From positions 2,790 to 66,789 of the forward strand of contig CAZKXY010000001.1 of NCBI GenBank assembly GCA_964556925.1: a stretch of DNA of 64,000 nucleotides, written 5' to 3'. This stretch comes from an uncultured Planctomycetales bacterium. GTDB taxonomy: Bacteria > Omnitrophota > Gorgyraeia > Aquiviventales > Aquiviventaceae. Under the pieces are notes generated by a model that made no database searches, was not told where the DNA came from, and saw only the letters and a list, made by a program, of their open reading frames with translations. This document shows, one piece after another, positions 9,155 to 55,060 of the stretch. Every line of letters starts with the position of its first letter. The first letter of the stretch is position 1. The position numbers and the translations under genes are program-made.

Positions 9155-10438
9155 ATGGACGTCCGGTTGGTGTGGAAGTCCTATTACGGGAATGAGCCGT
9201 TGACGCTGCAGCTGCCTGACGAGTGGGACGCGCAGGTGAGCGGGATGCCGCCGCGCCAGCCGTTGAGCGACGCGGCGATCGCGGACCGGATCGCGCAGGC
9301 GCCGGTTCGCTCGGGCAGGCTGCGCGATCTCGCGCGGGGCAAGCGGCGGGTCGTGATCGCGGTGGATGACCTCACCCGGCCGACCGAAGCCCACCGGCTG
9401 GCCCCTCCCGTGCTGTCCGAGCTGGCCGCCGCCGGCGTCGAGGCGCGGCACATCGTGTTCCTCGTCGCGATGGGCACGCACCGTCCCTATACCCTGCCGG
9501 ACCTCAGGAAGAAGCTCGGGGAGGAGATCGTCCAGACGTACGCCGTCTCGAATCACAGCTGCTACCAGCACCATCGTCTCATCGGCCGCACCTGCCGGGG
9601 CACGCCGGTGCAGATCAATCAGACGTACCTGGACGCCGACCTGAAGATCGGCATCGGCACCGTGATGCCGCACCCGATTGCGGGGTTCAGCGGGGGCGGC
9701 AAGCTCGTGACGATCGGCTTAGGCGGCATTGACACGGTGGAGGGGTTGCATCGGCCTGCGCTGACCAGCCTGCAGGGGACCATCGGGCGCGTCGAGGGCA
9801 ACCCGGTCCGGGAGGAGATCGAGGAGGGCCTCCGCTTGGCGGGGTTGGATTTTTTGGTCAACACCGTCCAAACGAGCACCGGGGCCACCGCGGAGGTCTT
9901 TGCCGGGGAGCCTGCGGCCGCCTACGCGGACGCGGTCCGGGCGGCGCAGCAGGCCTATGCCTGCGACGTCAGGTATCAGAACGACGTCGGGATCTTCAAC
10001 ACCTTCCCGCGGGACACCTGGATGCTCATGTCCTTCACCTCGCTGAACGTGTGGTCGACCCGGTCCCCGGAGAAGGCCGTGGTCCGGCCCGGCGGCTCGA
10101 TCGTCATCGTCAACGCCGCCTCCGAAGGCGTGGGCGAGCACGGCTTGATGACCAAAGGGATGCGGCAGTATCGCTTGAGGGATCAGCACGGCACGTTCAA
10201 GGACATGCTCCGAGACCGCGAGCTGGTGTTTCTCTCGCCGAACATCACGCGAGCCATGATCCGGGACTACTATCAGTGCGAGGTGCAACTCGTTCGGGAC
10301 GGCGACGCCCTGGTCCGGTCTCTCCGGCGGCGTCATCCTGGCCGGGCGCGCGTGTCGGTGTTCCCGCACGGGCCGCTGCAGATGGACGGCAGCTGCCTCA
10401 CCCCGGCCCCGGCGGTCTCGTCAGTCGCCCGTGGATGA
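9155..10438 (+). CDS. LarA-family protein (nickel-pincer-nucleotide dependent 2-hydroxyacid racemase/epimerase homolog, DUF2088)
   Basis: VIAVDDLTRPTE, AMGTHRP, NHSCYQHH...GTPVQINQTYLDADLKIGIGTVMPHPIAGFSGGGK, including the Lys that tethers the NPN cofactor in LarA. Full-length at 427 aa. Confidence 0.65.
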   Translation: MDVRLVWKSYYGNEPLTLQLPDEWDAQVSGMPPRQPLSDAAIADRIAQAPVRSGRLRDLARGKRRVVIAVDDLTRPTEAHRLAPPVLSELAAAGVEARHIVFLVAMGTHRPYTLPDLRKKLGEEIVQTYAVSNHSCYQHHRLIGRTCRGTPVQINQTYLDADLKIGIGTVMPHPIAGFSGGGKLVTIGLGGIDTVEGLHRPALTSLQGTIGRVEGNPVREEIEEGLRLAGLDFLVNTVQTSTGATAEVFAGEPAAAYADAVRAAQQAYACDVRYQNDVGIFNTFPRDTWMLMSFTSLNVWSTRSPEKAVVRPGGSIVIVNAASEGVGEHGLMTKGMRQYRLRDQHGTFKDMLRDRELVFLSPNITRAMIRDYYQCEVQLVRDGDALVRSLRRRHPGRARVSVFPHGPLQMDGSCLTPAPAVSSVARG

Positions 10439-20006: not shown

Positions 20007-20038
20007 AGGCCTTGATGACGGGCGGGGCGGCGAGATGA
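20003..20038 (+). other. Leader mini-ORF MKALMTGGAAR (11 codons) coupled by ATGA overlaps to both the upstream GT4 stop and the downstream epimerase start
   Basis: Read directly from the sequence: atgaaggccttgatgacgggcggggcggcgagatga. The peptide mimics the N-terminus of the downstream protein (MKALITGGAGF). Confidence 0.4.
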
Positions 20039-21108
20039 AGGCGCTCATTACGGGCGGGGCGGGGTTCATCGGATCGCATCTGACCGAGGCGCTCCTCAGG
20101 CGGGGCGATCACGTGACGGTGCTGGACGATCTCTCGACCGGCCGGTACGAGAACCTCGCGCACCTGGACGGCCGCCCGGAGCTCCAGGTCGTCATCGGGA
20201 CGGTCCTGAACGAGACCCTGGTGGACAAGTTCACCGAGCGGTGCGACGTGGTATTCCACCTGGCGGCCGCGGTCGGGGTGGAGCTGATCATCAAGAAGCC
20301 GCTGGAGTCGCTCATGACCAACATCCGCGGCAGCGAGATCATCCTCGAGATGGCCCACCGGTACCGCAAGAAGGTCCTGGTCGCCTCCACCTCCGAGATC
20401 TACGGCAAGAACACCACCGGCCCGCTGCGGGAGGACACCGACCGGGTGCTGGGCTCGGCCCTGAAGACGCGGTGGAGCTACTCGACGTCGAAAGCCGTGG
20501 ATGAAATCCTCGCGTACGTCTACTGGAAAGAGAAGAAGGTCCCGACGGTCATCGTGCGCCTCTTCAACACGGTCGGGCCCAGGCAGAGCGGCGCGTACGG
20601 GATGGTGATCCCGCGGTTTGTCAGCCAGGCGCTGGCGGGCAGGCCCCTCCAGGTGCACGGGGACGGCACGCAGACCCGGTGCTTCCTGCACGTGAACGAT
20701 GTCGTGCAGGCCCTGACGAAGCTCATCGAGCATCCCGGCGCCGTGGGGCAGGTGTTCAACCTCGGCAGCCAGGAGGAGGTGACGATCGAGGAGCTGGCGA
20801 AGCGCATCATCCGCCTCACCGGCAGCGCCTCTCGCATCGAGTACCTCCCGTATGACCAGGCGTATGAGGAAGGCTACGAGGACATGCCGCGGCGGGTGCC
20901 GGATACGAGCAAGGTCCGCGCGCTGATCGGCTTTGCGCCGAGCATGAATCTCGATGAGACCATCCGCAGCGTGGTCAGGAGCATGCGGCCTGAGAGGCCG
21001 GCCGCGCCCGCCACGGATCGCCCCACCCCGCCGGCGCGCCGGCGCCTCCGGAGAGGTGTCAGACACCTTTCAAAGCGGGAAAAGTGTCTGACACCTCTGG
21101 TGCGATGA
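20035..21108 (+). CDS. NAD-dependent epimerase/dehydratase (GalE/WcaG-like nucleotide-sugar 4-epimerase)
   Basis: ITGGAGFIGSHL and YSTSK (YxxxK). The last ~15 codons read through repeat copy A1 (GVRHLSKREKCLTP), so the true C-terminus is uncertain. Confidence 0.8.
   Translation: MKALITGGAGFIGSHLTEALLRRGDHVTVLDDLSTGRYENLAHLDGRPELQVVIGTVLNETLVDKFTERCDVVFHLAAAVGVELIIKKPLESLMTNIRGSEIILEMAHRYRKKVLVASTSEIYGKNTTGPLREDTDRVLGSALKTRWSYSTSKAVDEILAYVYWKEKKVPTVIVRLFNTVGPRQSGAYGMVIPRFVSQALAGRPLQVHGDGTQTRCFLHVNDVVQALTKLIEHPGAVGQVFNLGSQEEVTIEELAKRIIRLTGSASRIEYLPYDQAYEEGYEDMPRRVPDTSKVRALIGFAPSMNLDETIRSVVRSMRPERPAAPATDRPTPPARRRLRRGVRHLSKREKCLTPLVR
21054..21096. repeat. Family-A double-palindrome element, copy A1 (short spacer CAAAGCGGG)
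   Basis: AGGTGTCAGACACCTTT-CAAAGCGGG-AAAAGTGTCTGACACCT. Each arm, GGTGTC-N-GACACC, is itself palindromic. Confidence 0.85.
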
Positions 21109-32142: not shown

Positions 32143-34005
32143 ATGAGGGTTCCGGTGTCGGTGGTGATCCTCACCAAAAACGAGGCCGGCCGCATCCGCG
32201 AGTGCCTCGAGAGCGTGCGGTGGGCGGATGAGGTCCTCGTCGTCGATGACAACAGCACCGATGAGACCGTCCCGCTCGCGCAATCGCTCGGCGCCCGGGT
32301 GCTCCGGCGCACCATGGACCTCGAGGGCCGGCACCGCAACTGGGCCGCCGCCCAAGCCGCGCACGAGTGGGTCTTCAGCCTGGACGCGGACGAGCGCGTC
32401 ACCCCGGAGCTGGCGCAGGAGATCACCGCGCTGCTGCAGGGTCCTCCCGTCTACGAGACCTATGCGATCCCTCGGCGCAACTACATCGGGGACCGGTGGA
32501 TTCGGCACGGCGGCTGGTACCCCAGCGCCCAGGTGAAACTGTTCAAGAAATCGGCGTTTCGGTGGGAAGAGACCACCGTCCACCCCCGGGCCATCGGGCC
32601 GGCCGCCGGCGAGCTGACGCACGAGCTGCTTCACTACTCCTATCGTGACCTCGCGGATTTTGTCAGCAAGCTGGATCGCCAGACGACGTTGGAGTCGGAG
32701 AAGTGGGTCGCCGATGGCCGCCGCATGACGCTGGGCAAAGCCCTCTGGCGAAGCGCTGATCGGTTCTGGCGGGCCTTCGTGGGCAAGCAGGGCTGGCGGG
32801 ATGGGGTCTGGGGATTCCTCGTCGCGGTCATGGCCGGCTGCTACCAGATCCTGAGCTACGCGAAATATTGGGAGGCGCTCCTGCGCCTGCGCCACGAGCC
32901 CGCCACCTCTCCCGGCGCGCAGGAGGCGGCCGAGACGACGCCGGTCCTCTGCGACCTGATCGTGCTCACCTGGAACCGCGCGGATTTACTCCGGAGCTGC
33001 GTCGAGCGGCTCCTGGCCCATACGCCGCTTCCCAGCCGGCTCCTCATCGTGGATAACGGCAGCACCGATCCGGAGGCGTTGGGGTACCTGGACGCGCTGC
33101 GCCGGCGCCACCCGCGCGGCGTCGAGGTCATCCGGCATCCGGCCAACATCGGGATCGCCGCCGCGCTCAATGCCGGGCTGGCCCGGACCCGGGCGCCCTG
33201 GATCGGCCTGCTCAACAATGACGCCTTCGTGACCGCCGGCTGGCTGGAGGAGCTGATCGCCGTGGCGGAGTCCGACCCGTCGATCGGCCTGGTCAACCCC
33301 ATGAGCAACCAGTTCGGCCTCGCCCCCCGCGCGCGCGAAACCATCGATGCGGTCGCGCGCCGATGCCGCGCGGCCCGCGGGCGGTGGATCGAGCAGTCCC
33401 GCGCTGAGGGATTTTGCGTCGTGCTGCCCCGCCGGGTCTTCGAGCGCGTGGGCTATTGGGATGACACGCTGGGCGGGATGTTTTACGAGGACGCCGATTA
33501 CGCCCTGCGCGCGCGCCAGGCCGGGTTCCGCTCGGTGGTGGCCGAAGGGGCCTATGTCTATCATGTCGGCGGCGCAACGATCGGGCGGGACCCGGCGCGG
33601 CACGAGCGCTTCGCAGCAAGCGCCGCGCGCTTTGCTCGGAAGTGGCCCCTGGCCCAGCCGCAGCGGATGGGCTGGATCCTGGGGCGCGAACGCGGCCCTG
33701 CGCTGACGCCCGCGGCCTGCGCCATCCGCGAGCTGGCGAACGCGGGCCACAAGCTCTGGGTGTTCGGCGCCGCCGGCCAGGTGCGCGAGCTGCCCCGGCA
33801 TCTGCAGGTCGTCCCGGTGACGCTGCCGCGGGTCGGCGGATCCCTCGTCGCGCTGTGGCGGATCCTGACCAAGAAAAAACGCTTCCAGCGGATCGTCGTC
33901 GAGCCGGGCGCACTCGCGCGCGCGGTGAGGAGCCTCACCCCGCTGCACCGGGCGATGGTGGAGCCGCCTCCGGTCCGGCAGGACTCGCCTGATGGCGTCC
34001 CGTGA
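32143..34005 (+). CDS. Dual-domain glycosyltransferase: GT2 (WaaE/KdtX-like LTKNE type) followed by GT2 (rhamnosyltransferase-like)
   Basis: Domain 1: VSVVILTKNEAGRIRECLESVRWADEVLVVDD. Domain 2: LIVDNGS ... LLNNDAFVTAGWLEEL. Confidence 0.7.
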   Translation: MRVPVSVVILTKNEAGRIRECLESVRWADEVLVVDDNSTDETVPLAQSLGARVLRRTMDLEGRHRNWAAAQAAHEWVFSLDADERVTPELAQEITALLQGPPVYETYAIPRRNYIGDRWIRHGGWYPSAQVKLFKKSAFRWEETTVHPRAIGPAAGELTHELLHYSYRDLADFVSKLDRQTTLESEKWVADGRRMTLGKALWRSADRFWRAFVGKQGWRDGVWGFLVAVMAGCYQILSYAKYWEALLRLRHEPATSPGAQEAAETTPVLCDLIVLTWNRADLLRSCVERLLAHTPLPSRLLIVDNGSTDPEALGYLDALRRRHPRGVEVIRHPANIGIAAALNAGLARTRAPWIGLLNNDAFVTAGWLEELIAVAESDPSIGLVNPMSNQFGLAPRARETIDAVARRCRAARGRWIEQSRAEGFCVVLPRRVFERVGYWDDTLGGMFYEDADYALRARQAGFRSVVAEGAYVYHVGGATIGRDPARHERFAASAARFARKWPLAQPQRMGWILGRERGPALTPAACAIRELANAGHKLWVFGAAGQVRELPRHLQVVPVTLPRVGGSLVALWRILTKKKRFQRIVVEPGALARAVRSLTPLHRAMVEPPPVRQDSPDGVP

Positions 34006-34894
34006 ACCCCGCCCCACGGCCTGCCCGCCCCGCTCCGCTGGAGCGGGCCAGCGATCTCACCCGCTCGATGAACGGGCTGGGCTCACAGGCGGGGCTTCCG
34101 TGGGGCGGGGTGAACGGCTGACCGCGCTGCTCTTGACGAAGAACGAGGAAGCGCAATTGCGGCGCTGCCTGGACAGCGTCCGGTGGGCCGATGAGGTCGT
34201 GGTCGTCGATGGCCAGAGCACCGACCGCACCCCCCAGATCGCTCGAGACTACGGCGCAACCGTGGTGTCGCGGCCGTTCAGCGGCTCCTTCGCCGAGGAG
34301 CGCAACGCCGGCCTGGCGGTCGCCACCGGCGACTGGGTGCTCCAGATGGACGCGGACGAGCAGGTCAGCCCGGGCCTGCGCGCGGCGATCGAGCGGCTCT
34401 TGGCCGACGGCTCGCCCCACGCGGCGTTCAAGCTGAGGCGGCTCAACACGTTCCTCGGCCGGACGATGCGCCACGGTGGCTGGTACCACTACCACACGGC
34501 GCTGTTCCGCCGGCAGGGCGCGCGGTACGAGGGGCTGGTGCATGAGCGGCTGCGCCACCAGGGGAGCGTGGGCGTCCTGGAGGCGGACCTGTGCCACGAG
34601 CCGTTTCAGTCGATCAGCCAGTTCCTCGCGCGCCAGAACCGCTACACCAGTCTGCAGGCGCGCGAGCTGTTCGAGCGCCAGGGGCGACTGCCGCTGGCGC
34701 GCGTGAGGCGCCAATTGTGGGCCCGCCCGCTCAAGCTGTTCTGGAAAGCGTACGTCAAGAAGCAGGGCTTCCGCGAGGGCCGGCACGGCTTGATGTTCTC
34801 GATCCTGTTTGCGTGGGTGGATTTCCTCTTGTGGGCCAAGTATTGGGAACTGGTCTGGGCGGGATCCAGCGGAGACGCGCGCCGCCATGCGTGA
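33992..34894 (+). CDS. GT2 glycosyltransferase (WaaE/KdtX-like), paralog of domain 1 of the preceding gene
   Basis: LTALLLTKNEEAQLRRCLDSVRWADEVVVVDGQSTD. The start is ambiguous. The ATG at 33992 would place a strong hairpin inside the N-terminal coding region. An alternative GTG near 34100 lies just after that hairpin. Confidence 0.6.
   Translation: MASREPRPTACPPRSAGAGQRSHPLDERAGLTGGASVGRGERLTALLLTKNEEAQLRRCLDSVRWADEVVVVDGQSTDRTPQIARDYGATVVSRPFSGSFAEERNAGLAVATGDWVLQMDADEQVSPGLRAAIERLLADGSPHAAFKLRRLNTFLGRTMRHGGWYHYHTALFRRQGARYEGLVHERLRHQGSVGVLEADLCHEPFQSISQFLARQNRYTSLQARELFERQGRLPLARVRRQLWARPLKLFWKAYVKKQGFREGRHGLMFSILFAWVDFLLWAKYWELVWAGSSGDARRHA
34001..34116. promoter_or_regulatory. Structured element bounded by a perfect 14-bp long-range inverted repeat, upstream of (or within the 5' end of) the paralogous GT2 gene
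   Basis: ACCCCGCCCCACGG (34006-34019) / CCGTGGGGCGGGGT (34098-34111). Flanking direct GTGAAC repeats. Inner hairpin CCGCTCC-gct-GGAGCGG. Confidence 0.45.
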
Positions 34895-40526: not shown

Positions 40527-41267
40527 ATGACCGTGGTTGACCGGCGGGCGATGGCCCGCGCATTGCAGCGGCATGTGGAAGGGCTGCGGCTCATGGGCGT
40601 GACGCATCTGCCTGCCTGCCGCGCCGATGATCAGTCGGACTGGGCGTCATGGCGCGGCGCGGGATCAGGAACACCCTCCAGGTCTGAGCGGCTGGCCCGG
40701 CTGGCCGCGGAGGTGGCGCGCTGCCGGCGCTGTCCGCTCTACCGCACGAGGACGCACGCGGTTGTCAGCGACGGCAGCCCCGAGGCCCGCCTCGTGTTTG
40801 TCGGGGAAGCCCCGGGTCGAGAGGAAGACCTCCAGGGCAAGCCGTTCGTCGGGGCCGCGGGGCAGCTCCTGACCAAGATGATCGCGGCGATGGGGATGCG
40901 GCGGCAGGACGTGTACATCTGCAACGTGTTGAAGGACCGGCCGCCGGCCAACCGCACCCCGCTGCCGGAGGAGATGGACGCGTGCCTGCCGTTTTTGGAG
41001 CAGCAGCTCGCCATCGTCCACCCGCGCGTCATCTGCACGCTCGGCGCGGTCGCCACGAAGGCGCTCCTGGGCCCCTCGGTCCCCCTCTCCGCCATCCGGG
41101 GCACGGTGCGCGACTTCCGCGGCACCCCGCTCGTGCCGACGTTCCACCCCGCGTACCTGCTGCGCAATCCCGCCGCCAAGAAGTTCGCCTGGGCCGACCT
41201 CAAGACCGTGAAGTCGCTCTTAGAAGAAAAGGTGTCAGACACTTTTCAAAGCGGGAAAAGTGTCTGA
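40527..41267 (+). CDS. Uracil-DNA glycosylase, family 4 (4Fe-4S type)
   Basis: CRRCPLY, GEAPGREED and HPAYLLR motifs. The last ~12 codons read through repeat A4. Confidence 0.8.
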   Translation: MTVVDRRAMARALQRHVEGLRLMGVTHLPACRADDQSDWASWRGAGSGTPSRSERLARLAAEVARCRRCPLYRTRTHAVVSDGSPEARLVFVGEAPGREEDLQGKPFVGAAGQLLTKMIAAMGMRRQDVYICNVLKDRPPANRTPLPEEMDACLPFLEQQLAIVHPRVICTLGAVATKALLGPSVPLSAIRGTVRDFRGTPLVPTFHPAYLLRNPAAKKFAWADLKTVKSLLEEKVSDTFQSGKSV

Positions 41268-41274
41268 CACCCTT
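41227..41274. repeat. Family-A element, copy A4 (short spacer), between udg and priA
   Basis: AAAAGGTGTCAGACACTTTTCAAAGCGGGAAAAGTGTCTGACACCCTTT. Confidence 0.85.
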
Positions 41275-41275
41275 T

Positions 41276-43381
41276 ATGACGATGATTGCTGAAGTGGTGT
41301 TCAACCTTCCGCTGGAGAAATCCTTCCACTACCTGATCCCGGAGGCAGCGCGCGACACGCTGGAGCCGGGGATGCGCGTGTTGGCGCCGTTCGGCCCGCG
41401 CGAGCGGATGGGCTTCGTCGTGGAGCGCCTCGAGCGCAGCCCCATCCGTCACCTGAAAGCGATCCGGCGCGTGGTGGATCCCGTGCCCGTCATTGCGGAG
41501 GAGCGCTGGGCGCTGGCGTCGTGGCTCTCCGGCTACTACTGCTGCAGCCTCGGCGAGGTGCTGGCCGCGATGGTCCCGAGTGCGTTGCGGCTTGCTGTCC
41601 CGGTGCCAGGCACTTCAACGCCGGTGCCTGGCTCTTCGGCGCCAGTCACCGAAGCCCTAGGCGCCGAAGTGCCTGGCACCGGAAGAGAGCCAGATGCCGG
41701 CGGGGAGCCAGGCACCGACATTGAACTGACCGCCGACCAGCGGCGCGCCCTCGCGGCGATTCGGGACGCGATGGCCGCGCCGAGGTCCCGCACCGTGCTG
41801 CTCAACGGGGTGACCGGGTCAGGGAAGACCGAACTCTACCTGCGGGCGATCGCCGAAGGGCTCTCGCAGGGCCGGTCGGCGATCTGCCTCATCCCGGAGA
41901 TTGCGCTGACCCCCCAGACGATCGACCGGTTCCGCGCCCGGTTCGGCGGGATGGTCGCCGTCTGGCACAGCCGGATGGGCGACGCGCAGCGCGCCACAGC
42001 CTGGCAGCGGCTGCGACGGGGCGAGGCGCGCATCGTCGTCGGCGCCCGCTCGGCGGTGTTCGCGCCCGTGACGCGCCTGGGCCTTGTGATCCTCGATGAG
42101 GAGCACGAGCCGACGTACAAGCAGGAAGACACCCCGCGCTACCACGCGCGTGAGGTCGCGGTCGCTCGGGCCAAGCTGGTGGGTGCGACGGTGGTGCTGG
42201 GCAGCGCCACCCCGTCGGTGGAAAGCCGCTACGCGGCCGGCCGGCCGGGCGGCATCCTCGTCACGCTGCCGCAACGGGTGAAGGGCCGCCCGATGCCGAC
42301 GGTGGAGCTCGTGGACATGCGGGACGAGCTGATGGCGCGGCATCGGCTCGGCCCGCTCTCCGCCCGGCTGACGCGGGCCCTGGCGCACACCGTGGACCGT
42401 GGCGAGCAGGCGATGCTCCTCCTCAACCGGCGCGGGTTCGCCCGTGTCGCCTCCTGCCCGTCCTGCGGCTACGTGGCCCGGTGCGTGCGCTGCGCCGTGC
42501 CGCTCGTCTATCACGCCGGCCGCCAGGCGCTCCTCTGCCACTATTGCAACTTTCACGAGCCGCCGCCGGAGCTGTGCCCGGCGTGCCGCAAAGGCTACCT
42601 GCGGTTCCGCGGCTCCGGGACGGAGCGGGTGGAGTCGGAGCTGCACCGGCTGTTTCCTCTCGCCGCCATCGCCCGCATGGACCGGGATACGACGAGACGG
42701 GCGCAACGGTACCGGGAGGTCTATGACGCGGTGCGGACGCAGCAGGTGGGTGTCTTGGTTGGGACGCAGATGATTGCGAAGGGGCTGGATTTCCCGCAGG
42801 TGACGCTGGTCGGGGTGGTCTCGGCGGATACCGCCCTCAACCTGCCGGATTTCCGGGCGGGGGAGCGGACGTTTGATCTGTTGACGCAGATGGCCGGCCG
42901 GGCCGGCCGCGGACAGCAGCCGGGGCGCGTGCTGATCCAGACATTTTGCCCGCGCCACTACGCAATCCAGGCGGCCCAGCACCACGACTACCGGCGGTTC
43001 TATGAGGAGGAGCTGGCGATGCGCCGCCGCCTGCGCCTGCCGCCGTTCGTCCACCTTGTGGAGCTGACCGTGATCGGCTCATCCCTCGCTGGCGTCCAGG
43101 AGGCTTCGCAGCGATTGGCCGACGCGCTGCGCCGCGCGGCAACTCCGCGCCTGCCTGCCGCGCCGAGCGAACGGCGCCAACGGCGCACGACGCAGGCAGG
43201 GCGCATCACCGTGCTCGGCCCGGCGCCCCACCGGCTGGTTCGGCTGCGGCGGGCCTATCGCATGTGCGTGCTCCTGAAGGCGAAGTCGGTGGAGCCGATC
43301 GGGCGCCTGCTGCGGCAGGTCCTGGACCCGGGACGGAAGTTCCGCGGTCTGCCCGTGCTGGTGAACGTGGACCCCCTGTGA
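41276..43381 (+). CDS. priA: Primosomal protein N' (PriA replication-restart helicase)
   Basis: GVTGSGKTE (Walker A), DEEHE, the Cys-rich zinc-binding region CPSCG...CVRCAVPL...CHYCNF...CPAC and the C-terminal domain. Contains an in-frame palindromic insert at 41602-41680. Confidence 0.9.
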   Translation: MTMIAEVVFNLPLEKSFHYLIPEAARDTLEPGMRVLAPFGPRERMGFVVERLERSPIRHLKAIRRVVDPVPVIAEERWALASWLSGYYCCSLGEVLAAMVPSALRLAVPVPGTSTPVPGSSAPVTEALGAEVPGTGREPDAGGEPGTDIELTADQRRALAAIRDAMAAPRSRTVLLNGVTGSGKTELYLRAIAEGLSQGRSAICLIPEIALTPQTIDRFRARFGGMVAVWHSRMGDAQRATAWQRLRRGEARIVVGARSAVFAPVTRLGLVILDEEHEPTYKQEDTPRYHAREVAVARAKLVGATVVLGSATPSVESRYAAGRPGGILVTLPQRVKGRPMPTVELVDMRDELMARHRLGPLSARLTRALAHTVDRGEQAMLLLNRRGFARVASCPSCGYVARCVRCAVPLVYHAGRQALLCHYCNFHEPPPELCPACRKGYLRFRGSGTERVESELHRLFPLAAIARMDRDTTRRAQRYREVYDAVRTQQVGVLVGTQMIAKGLDFPQVTLVGVVSADTALNLPDFRAGERTFDLLTQMAGRAGRGQQPGRVLIQTFCPRHYAIQAAQHHDYRRFYEEELAMRRRLRLPPFVHLVELTVIGSSLAGVQEASQRLADALRRAATPRLPAAPSERRQRRTTQAGRITVLGPAPHRLVRLRRAYRMCVLLKAKSVEPIGRLLRQVLDPGRKFRGLPVLVNVDPL
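41602..41680. repeat. Family-B palindromic element inside the priA coding sequence (in-frame, encodes a Pro/Gly/Thr-rich linker)
   Basis: GGTGCCAGGCACTTC ... (49 nt) ... GAAGTGCCTGGCACC is a perfect 15-bp inverted repeat. It translates as VPVPGTSTPVPGSSAPVTEALGAEVPGTG. Confidence 0.7.
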
Positions 43382-43386
43382 GCACA

Positions 43387-43493
43387 AAAGTGCCAGGCAC
43401 TTTCCCGGTTGGATTTTTGGTTTAGCTGTGTCACACCGAAGTTTTCCACAGGTTGGCGGAAATTGGAAGCGGGAAAGTGCCTGGCACTTTTTT
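43387..43493. terminator. Family-B palindromic element forming a long hairpin with T-runs on both strands: a candidate bidirectional intrinsic terminator between convergent priA and the TPR gene
   Basis: AAAAGTGCCAGGCACTTTCCCG ... CGGGAAAGTGCCTGGCACTTTTTT. The 21-22-bp arms are separated by about 60 nt. TTTTTT follows the hairpin on the + strand, and TTTTGTG follows it on the - strand. Confidence 0.55.
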
Positions 43494-44088: not shown

Positions 44089-44134
44089 GGCCGCATTATC
44101 GCCGAATCGACCGGTGGCGTCAACGGCCGCCCCA

Positions 44135-44720: not shown

Positions 44721-45652
44721 TGTTCTTCGGCACGTCCGCGTTCGCCGTGCCGAGCCTGGAGCGCCTGGCGGCATCCCACGCTGTCGTCCACTGCATCACC
44801 CAGCCTGATCGCCCGCAGGGGCGAGGGCTCGCCCGCGCGCCCTCGCCGGTGAAGGTGGCGGCGCAGCGGCTGCGCCTGCCGCTTGTGCAGCCGGCGCGGC
44901 TGCGGGCCGAAGACGCTGCCGGGGTGGCCGCTGACATCGGCGTAGCCGCGGCGTACGGCCAGTTCATCCCCAAGGCGCTGCTTGCCCTGCCGGCCCACGG
45001 GATGCTGGGCGTGCATCCGTCGCTGTTGCCGAAGTACCGCGGGGCCGCCCCGGTGGCCTGGGCGATCGTGAACGGCGAGGCGACCACCGGCGTGACGATC
45101 TTCCGCATGAACGAGCGGCTCGACGCCGGCGAGGTGGTGGCGCAGGAGGAGGTGGCCATCGAGCCGCACGAGGATGCGCAGCAGCTCACCGCGCGTCTGG
45201 CGCGCCTCGGCGCCGAGGCGCTGCTTGGCGCCCTGGAGCGGATCGCGCAGGGCCAGGCGACCTTCATTCCGCAGGATGAGTCGCGGGCGATCCCGGCGCC
45301 GAAGCTGACCAAGGCCCACGGCCGGATCGACTGGGCCCGTCCGGCCGAGCAGATCGTGCGGCTGGTGCGCGCAACCGTCCCCTGGCCAGGCGCCTGGACC
45401 GAGTGGCGCGGCGGCCTGCTGAAGATCTGGGCGGCCGTGGCGCGCGCGGAGCCGACGGCCGTTGCGCCGGGGACCGTGGCGCGCGCGGCCGGCGATGCGC
45501 TGGCGATCGCCGCCGGCGGGGACCTAGTGGAGCTGGTGGAGGTGCAGCCGGCCGGCCGGCGGCGCATGCGCATCCAGGAGTTCCTCGCCGGCCACAGAAT
45601 TGATGTTGGTGAGCGTTTTGGGACAGGGGACAGGAGACAGGGGGCAGGTTGA
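44711..45652 (+). CDS. fmt: Methionyl-tRNA formyltransferase
   Basis: MRVMFFGT..FA, HPSLLPKYRG, and a C-terminal domain. The canonical def-fmt pair. An alternative ATG at 44720 overlaps the def stop. Confidence 0.85.
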   Translation: MRVMFFGTSAFAVPSLERLAASHAVVHCITQPDRPQGRGLARAPSPVKVAAQRLRLPLVQPARLRAEDAAGVAADIGVAAAYGQFIPKALLALPAHGMLGVHPSLLPKYRGAAPVAWAIVNGEATTGVTIFRMNERLDAGEVVAQEEVAIEPHEDAQQLTARLARLGAEALLGALERIAQGQATFIPQDESRAIPAPKLTKAHGRIDWARPAEQIVRLVRATVPWPGAWTEWRGGLLKIWAAVARAEPTAVAPGTVARAAGDALAIAAGGDLVELVEVQPAGRRRMRIQEFLAGHRIDVGERFGTGDRRQGAG

Positions 45653-45705
45653 GATGCTCGCTGCGACCTGTCTCCTGTCTCCGGTCTCCTGTCTTAGCCG
45701 TTCCG

Positions 45706-47752: not shown

Positions 47753-47767
47753 CCGATGACACCGTTC

Positions 47768-47842
47768 CGGTGTCAGGCACTTCGCTCCGCCTACAATGGT
47801 GTCAGACACTTTTCAAAGCGGGAAAAGTGTCTGACACCTTTT
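47768..47842. repeat. Family-A element, copy A6 (short spacer), preceded by an A/B hybrid half-site, between galT-like copy 2 and gap
   Basis: GGTGTCAGGCACTTCGC ... GGTGTCAGACACTTTTCAAAGCGGGAAAAGTGTCTGACACCTTTT. Confidence 0.8.
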
Positions 47843-47856
47843 AACGGGAGGATGTG

Positions 47857-48909
47857 ATGGCGATTCGGGTCGGCATTAACGGGTTCGGACGGATCGGGCG
47901 CAACGTCTTCCGCGCCGGCGTCAACCGGGCGGGGATCGAGTTCGTGGCGGTGAACGACCTGCCGACCCCGACGGAGACGCTGGCCCACCTGCTCAAGTAC
48001 GACTCGATCCTGGGCACGTTTCAGGCCGACGTCCGCGCCAGCCAGGACGCCGTGGTCGTCAACGGCAAGCCCCTGAAGGTCTTCACGAGCAAGACCCCGG
48101 CCGAGATCCCCTGGAACGACCTGGGGGTCGAGCTCGTGGTGGAGTCCAGCGGCGTCTTCACCGACAAGGAGCGGGCATCCGGCCACCTCGCCAGGGGGGT
48201 CAAGAAGGTCGTCATCACCGCCCCGGCGAAGAACGAGGACCTCACCATCGTGCTGGGGGTCAACGAGCAGGCCTACGACCCGGCCAAGCACCACGTGCTC
48301 TCCAACGCCTCCTGCACGACCAACTGCGTCGTGCCGATGGCCAAGCTGATCCATGAGCGGTTCACGATCGTGCGCGGGTTCATGACCACGATCCACTCGT
48401 ACACCAACGACCAGCGCCTGCTGGACCTGACGCACAAGGACCTGCGCCGGGCGCGGGCCGCGGCGCTGTCGATGATCCCGAGCACGACCGGGGCGGCCAA
48501 GACGGTCGGGGTGGTGTTCCCGGAGCTCAAGGGGCGCATCGACGGGCTCTCGATCCGGGTGCCGACGCCGAACGTCTCGATCGTCGATCTCTCCTGCCAG
48601 GTGGAGCAGCCGACGACGGCCGAGGCGGTGAACCAGCTCTTCAAGGCCGCCGCCGAGGGGCCCATGAAGGGGATCCTGCAGTACTGCGCCGACCCGCTCG
48701 TCTCGCGGGACTTCAACGGCAACGCGCACTCGTGCATCTTCGACGCCACGATGACGGCGGTGATCGACAGGCAGCTCGTCAAGGCCTTCGGCTGGTACGA
48801 CAACGAGTGGGGCTACTCGAACCGCGTCGTGGACCTCATCGAGTACGTCGCGAAGCGCGGGCTCGGCGCCACCGCAGGCAGCGCGGCCAAGGCTGCAGTT
48901 GGGGCCTAG
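47857..48909 (+). CDS. gap: Glyceraldehyde-3-phosphate dehydrogenase
   Basis: INGFGRIGR and SCTTNC motifs. A GGGAGG Shine-Dalgarno lies 8 nt upstream. Confidence 0.92.
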   Translation: MAIRVGINGFGRIGRNVFRAGVNRAGIEFVAVNDLPTPTETLAHLLKYDSILGTFQADVRASQDAVVVNGKPLKVFTSKTPAEIPWNDLGVELVVESSGVFTDKERASGHLARGVKKVVITAPAKNEDLTIVLGVNEQAYDPAKHHVLSNASCTTNCVVPMAKLIHERFTIVRGFMTTIHSYTNDQRLLDLTHKDLRRARAAALSMIPSTTGAAKTVGVVFPELKGRIDGLSIRVPTPNVSIVDLSCQVEQPTTAEAVNQLFKAAAEGPMKGILQYCADPLVSRDFNGNAHSCIFDATMTAVIDRQLVKAFGWYDNEWGYSNRVVDLIEYVAKRGLGATAGSAAKAAVGA

Positions 48910-48943
48910 CGAGACAGAGAAAGAACGCAGGGTTCTCACCTGG

Positions 48944-50200
<1,257 letters not shown>

Positions 50201-50215
50201 GCGATTGGGTTGCTG

Positions 50216-51390: not shown

Positions 51391-51452
51391 AAAAGGTGTC
51401 AGACACCTTCTTCGCTGCGAGACGACCGCTCAACAGGTGTCTGACACCTTTT
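51391..51452. repeat. Family-A element, copy A7 (long spacer), between secG and the peptide-binding protein
   Basis: AAAAGGTGTCAGACACCTTCTTCGCTGCGAGACGACCGCTCAACAGGTGTCTGACACCTTTT. Confidence 0.85.
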
Positions 51453-55028: not shown

Positions 55029-55032
55029 GCGA

Positions 55033-55050
55033 AAAAGTGCCAGGCACTTC
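55033..55050. repeat. Family-B half-site between the OppC-like and OppD-like genes
   Basis: AAAAGTGCCAGGCACTTCGCC, a single arm with no partner within 100 nt. Confidence 0.5.
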
Positions 55051-55060
55051 GCCGCTTGGA

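Follow-up and report, generated by a model that had tools for sequence, protein, structure and literature searches.

How does the gene of an essential helicase come to carry a perfect palindrome inside its reading frame, and what keeps the palindrome there? The question is raised by a 64,000-nucleotide stretch of contig CAZKXY010000001.1 (assembly GCA_964556925.1; the whole stretch is referred to below as the window), from an uncultured bacterium of the candidate phylum Omnitrophota, in which priA, the gene for primosomal protein N', contains a hairpin-forming inverted repeat. An initial annotation of this DNA had read the hairpin as a rare insertion of a mobile repeat, related to an element 1.7 kb downstream and domesticated as an interdomain linker. 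On balance, and with some reserve, we favour a related but different reading: the feature is a doublet of a short palindromic repeat (core GTRYCWGRYAC, CCGG flanks), organized like the REPINs described below and translated, as a passenger, within the disordered segment of PriA that tethers its 3'-DNA-binding domain (3'BD) to the helicase core.

The hairpin in priA and the protein that carries it

The host gene runs from an ATG at 41276 to a stop codon ending at 43381 with its frame intact. G+C content is about 70% throughout the window, and the gene order (monogalactosyldiacylglycerol synthase, uracil-DNA glycosylase [UDG], priA, a TPR gene on the minus strand, def and fmt) is common to Omnitrophota relatives. 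The product has the parts by which a PriA is identified, namely the 3'BD (Pfam, residues 6-101), a superfamily-2 helicase core (DEAD domain at 153-314, with the DEAD/ResIII core beginning at residue 149), a Cys-rich Zn-binding region (PriA Zn-ribbon, 403-429) and the C-terminal domain (PriA_C, 590-700); the Pfam families found are PF17764, PF00270, PF00271, PF18319 and PF18074. Known PriA structures match it at E values of 1e-118 to 1e-122, and its nearest database proteins are primosomal protein N' from metagenome-assembled genomes of Candidatus Omnitrophota, at 56-70% identity. DNA and protein are identical in three assemblies (JGI 3300022563, JGI 3300025157 and ENA ERZ27245685); as the DNA agrees base for base, the intact reading frame is no assembly accident, and the open frame on which the initial annotation relied is real. 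The features of the gene that matter here are as follows.

41276-43381, plus strand: priA, primosomal protein N', 701 aa, the host gene (open reading frame and translation, Pfam, names of homologues, PDB alignment, AlphaFold)
41582-41731, plus strand: codons of the interdomain linker, about residues 103-152, the sole long low-confidence unstructured stretch and the lowest G+C content at third codon positions (GC3) of priA
41600-41620, plus strand: arm 1, CCGGTGCCAGGCACTTCAACG, with the core GTGCCAGGCAC at 41603-41613, encoding P-V-P-G-T-S-T (repeat analysis)
41621-41643, plus strand: arm 1', with the core GTGCCTGGCTC at 41624-41634, encoding P-V-P-G-S-S-A (repeat analysis)
41644-41659, plus strand: loop or inner stem, AGTCACCGAAGCCCTA, with CUUCGG and CCGAAG paired in the minimum-energy fold (folding)
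41660-41682, plus strand: arm 2, GGCGCCGAAGTGCCTGGCACCGG, with the core GTGCCTGGCAC at 41669-41679, encoding (G-A-)E-V-P-G-T-G (repeats and fold)
41695-41728, plus strand: a fourth, degenerate core, GAGCCAGGCAC, at 41705-41715, encoding E-P-G-T, in a weaker inverted repeat to 41611-41644

The perfect 15-nt arms, GGTGCCAGGCACTTC at 41602-41616 and its reverse complement GAAGTGCCTGGCACC at 41666-41680, lie 49 nt apart, exactly where the initial annotation had put them, and its in-frame translation across the hairpin, ...VPVPGTSTPVPGSSAPVTEALGAEVPGTGREP..., is correct. The hairpin encodes residues 109-136, a coil rich in Pro, Gly, Ser and Thr that makes up about 28 of the linker's 45 residues. 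What that description overlooked is the internal organization of the element. The core, GTGCCWGGCAC, is itself a palindrome and gives V-P-G-T from either strand. There are four in-frame copies of it in the linker, perfect at 41603 and, in the opposite arm, at 41669, and degenerate at 41624 and 41705. Arm 1' is a 21-nt (7-codon) tandem duplicate of arm 1, at 81% identity, and forms with arm 2 an inner 23-nt inverted repeat (41621-41643 and 41660-41682, 91% complementary), such that arm 2 is able to pair with both. In the minimum-energy fold, arm 1 (41600-41617) and arm 1' are both stacked on arm 2, and the result is an interrupted stem of about 34 bp. Positions 41590-41735 fold at -80.9 kcal/mol as RNA (z -5.7; none of 200 dinucleotide shuffles was as good) and at -44.7 kcal/mol as DNA (z -5.2). 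The feature has the long stem-loop of known in-frame palindromic elements and, like them, brings no stop or frameshift and leaves the host protein intact. An intrinsic terminator was considered and rejected: the stem is followed by AAGAGAGCC, with no U-tract, and a terminator scan returned none at 41600-41700. No Rfam family matched the hairpin at gathering score, and three sub-threshold matches, to microRNA precursor models, were dismissed as generic hairpin matches.

An AlphaFold2 model of the protein, built on a 68-sequence alignment, has a mean local confidence (pLDDT) of 87.5 and a predicted template-modelling score of 0.89. The pLDDT falls below 50 only at residues 113-144, and no secondary structure is predicted between residues 100 and 152. 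Together with the fold z-scores, these values bear out the central claim of the initial annotation, that a hairpin-forming palindromic repeat is translated in frame in the interdomain linker of PriA. The domains it named on either side need amending: the element does lie between the 3'BD and the helicase core, but the PDB alignment places no winged-helix (WH) domain between the two in this PriA. Alignment with full-length PriA structures from E. coli and Klebsiella falls into two blocks and leaves out their residues ~110-190, the WH domain, which indicates that the present PriA is without one and that the linker occupies its position; the best single PDB match, 6dcr, a 694-residue E. coli chain, aligns straight across that position. 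Canonical PriA (E. coli and Klebsiella; 4nl4, 6dgd and 8fak) therefore shares with this protein the 3'BD, two helicase lobes, the Cys-rich Zn ribbon and the C-terminal domain, whereas its WH domain is here replaced by a disordered linker, 18-102 aa long in orthologs, which is the site of hairpin accumulation. Base composition also sets the element apart. Its GC3 is 0.61 compared with 0.89 in the rest of priA (0.54-0.61 in the linker region), and the lowest-GC3 28-codon window of the gene is centred on the palindrome. A second low-confidence stretch of the protein (pLDDT 60-71), at 43136-43195 (residues ~621-640, AATPRLPAAPSERRQRRTTQAGR), corresponds to ~17 aa inserted into PriA_C when compared with the clade consensus, and its DNA holds only a weak 13-nt inverted repeat.

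The linker site in other Omnitrophota

Linker lengths and motifs were counted in the 116 closest PriA proteins with a parsable linker. The shortest linker has 18 aa and the longest 102, the median is 25, and the window linker has 45. The peptide motif V[SP][DG][TS] is present in the linker of 11 of the 116 proteins (9.5%), twice in nine of these, at a density of 6.56 per 1000 aa in linkers compared with 0.05 in the rest of the proteins, a ~130-fold difference. We examined the DNA of eight motif-bearing orthologs (loci L084, L085, L087, L089, L090, L091, L092 and L093), whose PriA proteins are 60-70% identical. Every one of the eight encodes the motif by a nucleotide palindrome, translated in the same frame and bounded by CCGG outer flanks, and the doublet lies 3-7 codons past a conserved LR anchor. 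The initial annotation had reasoned that orthologs sharing the peptide without palindromy would make a mobile-element origin unnecessary; the opposite is found, the motif being shared together with the palindrome.

These hairpins differ in sequence while remaining paired. The core is of the GTGCC type in L084, L085 and L089, GTGTC in L090 and L093, and GTATC in L087 and L092, while L091 has a hybrid arm, GTGTC-T-GGCAC, facing a degenerate one, GCGTCTGACAC; a hybrid core state is found in both P0016 and P0029, which are related proteins. The cores lie 36 nt apart in five lineages and 39, 45, 51 or 66 nt apart in others, and the 25-nt stretches between the cores of the 36-nt-spaced lineages are unrelated in sequence. 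Stem extensions past the core are particular to each lineage yet complementary (TTC/GAA, TAGCC/GGCTA, CAG/CTG, CGACC/GGTCG and TTCGCC/GGCGAA), and the 17-nt ends are nearly invariant in sequence, beyond what pairing alone requires. Decay is partial in L091 and L089, and in L089 the same T-to-S change (GGCTC) appears in both arms, which keeps the peptide repeat but not the pairing.

Covariation was counted on an alignment of the arms anchored at their cores. Paired cells make up 89.4% of this alignment and 26-37% when the register is slid by 1-3 columns; 11 of the 20 stem pairs have changed on both sides; and the covariation score of 0.443, against 0.164 in shuffles, was reached by none of 500 shuffles. 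The covariation includes two third-codon positions at which the change is synonymous (GTG/GAC to GTA/GAT) and two positions at which the peptide switches from Pro-Gly to Ser-Asp in step. Hence, the palindrome is conserved and the peptide is not. Among cells without a Watson-Crick pair, G·T (3) is not in excess over A·C (5), so the constraint looks symmetric and at the level of DNA. An RNA-specific structure was considered and is unsupported, since the two kinds of mismatch are equally rare.

The host gene also exists without the element. About 90% of the 116 clade proteins lack the motif, including the nearest relatives of the window PriA (P0040, P0019/L174 and P0023), whose linkers are ~23-27 aa shorter than that of the window. 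L174, the nearest relative with DNA, has no hairpin in its linker, and its linker DNA is too diverged from that of the window for insertion boundaries to be defined by nucleotide alignment. The initial annotation had asked whether the segment is lineage-specific; it is missing in these relatives, but same-site hairpins are found in at least eight other Omnitrophota lineages, and the event is neither recent nor peculiar to this genome. The view that such an event is rare does not survive this comparison either, given that about 10% of the 116 PriA proteins have the motif and that other orthologs hold unrelated hairpins in the same linker. Ten of 21 orthologous linkers have a minimum free energy z-score of -3 or lower, while same-length control windows elsewhere in priA average about 0; this sample is biased toward selected motif-bearing loci, and L003, L096 and L098 were left out of the linker statistics. 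The relatives themselves include at least nine close ones from a metagenome scan with a clade alignment and five from a genome scan.

The other hairpins in the linker (L004, L005, L097 and L175) belong to families unrelated to that of the window priA. L004 and its relative L001 have a G+C-rich stem, GGGGGCGGGT.../...ACCCGCCCCC (z -5.7), the linker of L005 consists of inverted arrays of 7-nt repeats (z -3.6), L097 has the hairpin GGGTGAAGGG.../...CCCTTCACC (z -3.1), which is found by peptide in P0020 and P0092 as well, and L095 has a weaker one. The L005 array, at 9735-9830, sets four tandem GGCTCGA heptamers against four of GCCTCCA and is translated as ...GSRLEARGG...SLQPPASSLQ.... P0021 (L175) and P0015 are roughly 93% identical outside the linker, as counted from their alignment, and differ by a 68-aa block, which in P0021 folds into nested hairpins (L175 6798-7055, z -2.5). 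To judge from these sequences, if any pair records a recent insertion or deletion in the linker, it is most likely this one.

Related doublets also occur outside priA in some of these genomes. L085/L086 has an intergenic 23+20+23 doublet with a GTGCC core, the core type of its own priA copy, and CCGG-flanked GTATC doublets lie outside priA in L001 (5567-5623) and L090 (6395-6450). In 2.26 Mb of fetched loci from many phyla, the palindromic cores are confined to this Omnitrophota clade, bar one lone core in L030. The L001 copy falls in the last codons of a 365-aa open reading frame (...RYQIPVEGSRSFRPVSDTGEGHGAVP*).

Palindromic repeats elsewhere in the window

The core is strongly over-represented in the window. 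The 11-mer GTGCCAGGCAC occurs 5 times (0.06 expected) and the 15-mer, with up to two mismatches, 7 times (0.28 expected). Exact matches to GTGYCWGRCAC number 24, of which 18 are of family A (GTGTCWGACAC), five of family B (GTGCCWGGCAC) and one is a hybrid (GTGTCAGGCAC at 47770). A triple arrangement was noted at 47762-47845. The two families are two changes apart, T to C and A to G, with the palindrome kept. The 18 family A arms form nine inverted intergenic pairs (21048-55923) of two fixed architectures: a short form of 21+7+21 nt, which has AAAGCGG as its loop and is present in 5 copies, the one at 44130 being inverted, and a long form of 23+20+23 nt with a conserved GCGAGACGAC interior (4 copies). 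Family B has two arms in priA, a pair at 43390/43477 and a single arm at 55037. Counted over the window, there are 11 pairs and two single cores, and the intergenic copies are missing at the syntenic sites of relatives, that is, they are lineage-specific. Three of these elements are as follows.

41227-41275, no strand: short-form hairpin of family A just ahead of the priA ATG, 21+7+21 nt with core GTGTCWGACAC (repeats, gene coordinates)
43386-43491, no strand: family B intergenic hairpin downstream of priA, 45-nt arms, 78% complementary (repeat analysis)
55029-55060, no strand: single family B arm, AAAAAGTGCCAGGCACTTCGCCG, in a short intergenic gap (core search)

The downstream hairpin is the element of which the priA repeat had been called a sequence variant (there given as 43387-43493). 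Part of that kinship stands, since a core of 11-14 nt is common to both; the interior, the length and the flanks differ (CCGG in priA, AAAA/TTTT around the downstream core), and the one is no copy of the other. The arm at 55029-55060 has 14 nt in common with arm 1, GTGCCAGGCACTTC. Put in terms of a dispersed family, the priA core is common to three other B-type arms and is two compensating changes from the 18 A-type arms, a match over the length of the core only, and full-length homology to any other copy was found nowhere in the 64 kb. Two further properties of these repeats were noted. The family B core contains CCWGG, a Dcm/EcoRII-type site (at 41603-41613, 41669-41679, 43390, 43477 and 55037), and the CCGG of priA-type flanks is an HpaII/MspI-type site. 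Family A copies are flanked by A-runs and T-runs, with T-runs ending the intergenic copies, and by this arrangement they could act as bidirectional terminators.

Translated hairpin repeats are common in this genome, priA being the only internal case in the 64 kb. The hairpin at 41227-41275 ends one base ahead of the priA ATG, and the UDG gene (40527-41267) takes its final 14 codons (EEKVSDTFQSGKSV) and its TGA stop from it. UDG and priA overlap directly by 4-11 nt in relatives (L085, L087, L090 and L092), where the site of the element is empty, which indicates that in the window the element has replaced a translationally coupled junction. The gene at 20035-21108 reads through a family A short hairpin (21052-21098), from which its last ~19 codons (...RGVRHLSKREKCLTPLVR*) are derived. 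Phosphoglycerate kinase (PGK; 48899-50200), with 418 aa in the window gene call and 400-403 aa in L087 and L091, owes its last ~21 residues and its stop codon to an unrelated palindrome at 50138-50203, formed by CGCTCCGGGCTCAGGGCTGTGGGCTCTGGGCAATTGC and its complement (84% complementary). A hairpin of another family, GACAGGGGACAGGAGACAGGGGGCAG / CTGCGACCTGTCTCCTGTCTCCGGTC, at 45622-45686, spans the C-terminus and stop of methionyl-tRNA formyltransferase (fmt, ending at 45652).

Two other loci were noted where palindromes meet gene boundaries. An inverted repeat with 30-nt arms lies at 34000-34117, at the boundary of two glycosyltransferase genes; gene calls near it differ between the JGI assemblies (620+300 aa in L081, 542+264 aa in L082), and at 34196 the window differs by a single base from both of these, which agree with each other there. 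At 51396, in an SBP_bac_5 gene, one assembly starts the solute-binding protein at a GTG inside the palindrome GTGTCAGACAC (548 aa), and the product called in another has 527 aa; the repeat has probably misled annotation into the longer start.

Origin and persistence of the priA element

A REPIN-like passenger would have entered the linker in an ancestor of part of the Omnitrophota clade, and the protein tolerates it because the linker is unconstrained in both length and sequence. The palindrome would then be held by forces acting on the DNA and not on the peptide. The spreading machinery of the dispersed copies might recognise the hairpin ends, in the manner of RAYT transposases and REPINs; a site already occupied by a hairpin might undergo re-insertion or conversion; or quasi-palindromes might be corrected by template switching. 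Where these forces lapsed, the element would decay or be lost; other hairpins may have replaced or joined it in some lineages; and in the lineage of the window it may have grown by the 21-nt tandem duplication. The best-supported reading of its age is that it is old enough to be common to several divergent lineages and has been lost or has decayed in most. For PriA itself, the element would be a passenger acting as a neutral spacer and not an evolved functional module. The domestication proposed initially, in the sense of an adaptive linker, is not supported and stays unproven: the peptide is disordered and variable, and it takes second place to the palindrome.

Several observations weigh against this account. 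Only the core of 11-14 nt is common to the priA element and the intergenic copies of its own genome, and its architecture matches neither of theirs, with CCGG flanks and a core spacing of 66 nt here and of 36 nt modally, compared with intergenic spacings of 28 and 41 nt. No target-site duplication is present at its ends (flanks GCTGTC | CCGG...CCGG | AAGAGA), although age may have erased one. No transposase or RAYT was identified in the 64 kb and the short contigs, the window not having been scanned for one. At L087/L088 (18.5 and 12.5 kb), L084, L092 and L093, the only copies in loci of 4-18 kb are those in priA, and a dispersed family is not demonstrated there. The scatter of motif-bearing proteins was seen on a neighbour-joining tree of PriA that is rough, and most of the motif-bearing ortholog DNAs were picked by their peptide motif, which biases frequencies among them; the unbiased figures are the 11 of 116 proteins with the motif and three of 12 linkers with a z-score of -3 or lower (L001-L005, L094-L107 and L174). 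Near-perfect stems kept at 60-70% protein identity, finally, could equally mean purifying selection by the host on a functional hairpin.

This last point leads to the strongest competitor, which we nevertheless think rather unlikely: a vertically inherited cis-element of priA with a function for the host, its pairing under purifying selection. It might be a site of double-strand RNase processing or stability that sets a low PriA level, a translational pause after the 3'BD, or a single-stranded DNA structure used in replication or restart, and the intergenic elements with the same core would be further sites for the same factor. Such a role would suit the identical codon position and the 36-nt spacing in five lineages despite unrelated loops, the strong covariation that includes synonymous sites, the conservation of the 17-nt ends beyond pairing, the confinement of copies to priA within 5-18 kb in several relatives, and the hybrid core of P0016 and P0029, which suggests a stepwise inherited change. 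It fits poorly with a hairpin that is dispensable, as the lack of the motif in ~90% of clade PriA proteins, nearest relatives included, indicates, and that is unrelated or missing at the site in other lineages and partly decayed in L091 and L089; the lack of a G·U excess over A·C (3 vs 5) argues against an RNA-specific structure, the missing U-tract against a terminator, and there is no Rfam match. We regard as improbable the history closest to the initial annotation, in which a copy of the family B element at 43387-43493 was recently inserted in this one lineage and domesticated as a useful linker. The core common to 43390/43477 and 55037, the shorter linkers (by ~23-27 aa) of the nearest relatives that are without the segment, and the atypical GC3, as expected of unameliorated DNA, all point that way. 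However, no more than 11-14 nt per arm are common to the two elements, which differ in interior, length and flanks; the CCGG-flanked doublet lies at the same codon position in eight divergent lineages; and the encoded stretch is predicted to be disordered, its peptide not being conserved, with SD replacing PG as the palindrome changes.

Slippage in an ordinary low-complexity Pro/Gly peptide repeat of the PVPGT type, with the palindromy an accident of codon choice, might account for the 7-codon duplication PVPGTST/PVPGSSA, for four core copies all in one frame and for the L089 arms, in which the same T-to-S change keeps the peptide but not the pairing. We reject this reading, to which we give very little credence, because of covariation at synonymous sites and in the stem extensions: the extensions differ between orthologs yet remain complementary, and 11 of 20 pairs have changed on both sides. 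The same core is, moreover, abundant in non-coding DNA, and the motif is ~130 times as dense in the linker as elsewhere in PriA. An error of assembly or binning, such as a repeat-induced chimera or a collapsed repeat in priA, is conceivable in principle, as metagenome misjoins at repeats do occur and the genome is rich in such repeats; the identical priA DNA from different samples and pipelines, the intact reading frame with its confident full-length fold, and the same feature in orthologs from many unrelated samples leave it with next to no probability.

A bolder alternative is that the linker is a specific, long-lived landing pad or a functional DNA hairpin, at which a hairpin-recognising system repeatedly targets or maintains a palindrome. 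PriA historically recognises hairpin primosome-assembly sites in single-stranded DNA, and the system could be either the spreader of the GTRYCWGRYAC doublets or PriA itself. We consider this a long shot. If true, the priA hairpin and the genome-wide elements would be one DNA-level system tied to replication restart.

The REPIN-like passenger that we prefer has precedents. In-frame palindromic repeats in conserved genes are established for the Rickettsia palindromic elements (RPEs) (Ogata et al. 2000, as reviewed in PMC10969869 and PMC2229807). Hairpin repeats lie there, as here, both between genes and in frame in conserved housekeeping genes, several per genome (in the window, priA internally and UDG, fmt, PGK and the gene ending at 21108 at their C-termini), and they are translated without wrecking the protein, are placed where the fold tolerates them and are seen as neutral or slightly deleterious passengers. 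RPEs are ~100-150 bp long, AT-rich and limited to Rickettsia, in contrast to the priA element with its ~50-85 nt, two cores of 11-17 nt and an Omnitrophota genome of 70% G+C; the likeness is one of architecture, and sequence homology is not expected across a different phylum and base composition. In a further contrast, the priA linker is occupied in many lineages by a covarying family and by several unrelated hairpins. Such occupancy of one site is not known to have been described for RPEs.

The arrangement of the repeat is closer to that of REPINs, which are doublets of repetitive extragenic palindromic (REP) sequences that form hairpins and are mobilised by RAYT transposases (PMC3116915); their conserved ends enclose a spacer of fixed length with compensatory changes (Bertels & Rainey 2011, PMC3116915). 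Common to both are two inverted short palindromic units around a hairpin-forming spacer, conserved ends with a spacer kept in length and pairing but not in sequence (in the present case across orthologs), doublets that outnumber singlets, and dispersed extragenic copies missing at syntenic sites in relatives; extragenic related doublets of families A and B are frequent, with 11 pairs in 64 kb. REPINs are extragenic by definition, whereas the priA copy is intragenic and translated; its repeat units are shorter than typical REPs, and the copies that show compensatory changes are orthologs from different genomes instead of paralogs within one. Intragenic fusions of ERIC, YPAL and Correia-type miniature inverted-repeat transposable elements (Delihas 2007 reviews, PMC2229807) are likewise small, non-autonomous repeats with open reading frames that are fused in frame and often provide C-terminal residues or stops. 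In them, terminal inverted repeats are accompanied by TA target-site duplications; the priA element is much shorter and, differing here from the classical type, has inverted ends but no direct duplication of its flanks.

A selfish palindromic repeat translated within a housekeeping gene is thus a known kind of feature. What is new is the phylum and a much shorter, REPIN-like element, together with the finding that a single linker site in an essential helicase holds a covarying hairpin family, unrelated hairpins or nothing, depending on the lineage. There is also a warning for annotation, as low-complexity linkers, C-terminal tails and even start codons, such as the GTG at 51396, can be derived from repeats. 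One disordered linker with three outcomes is an unusually clear natural experiment, and it offers a tractable system for studying the origin of disordered linkers and the upkeep of such elements, whether through recognition by a transposase, through gene conversion or through the correction of quasi-palindromes. The priA element extends translated selfish palindromic DNA, best known in Rickettsia, to the free-living, high-G+C candidate phylum Omnitrophota and to a replication-restart helicase.

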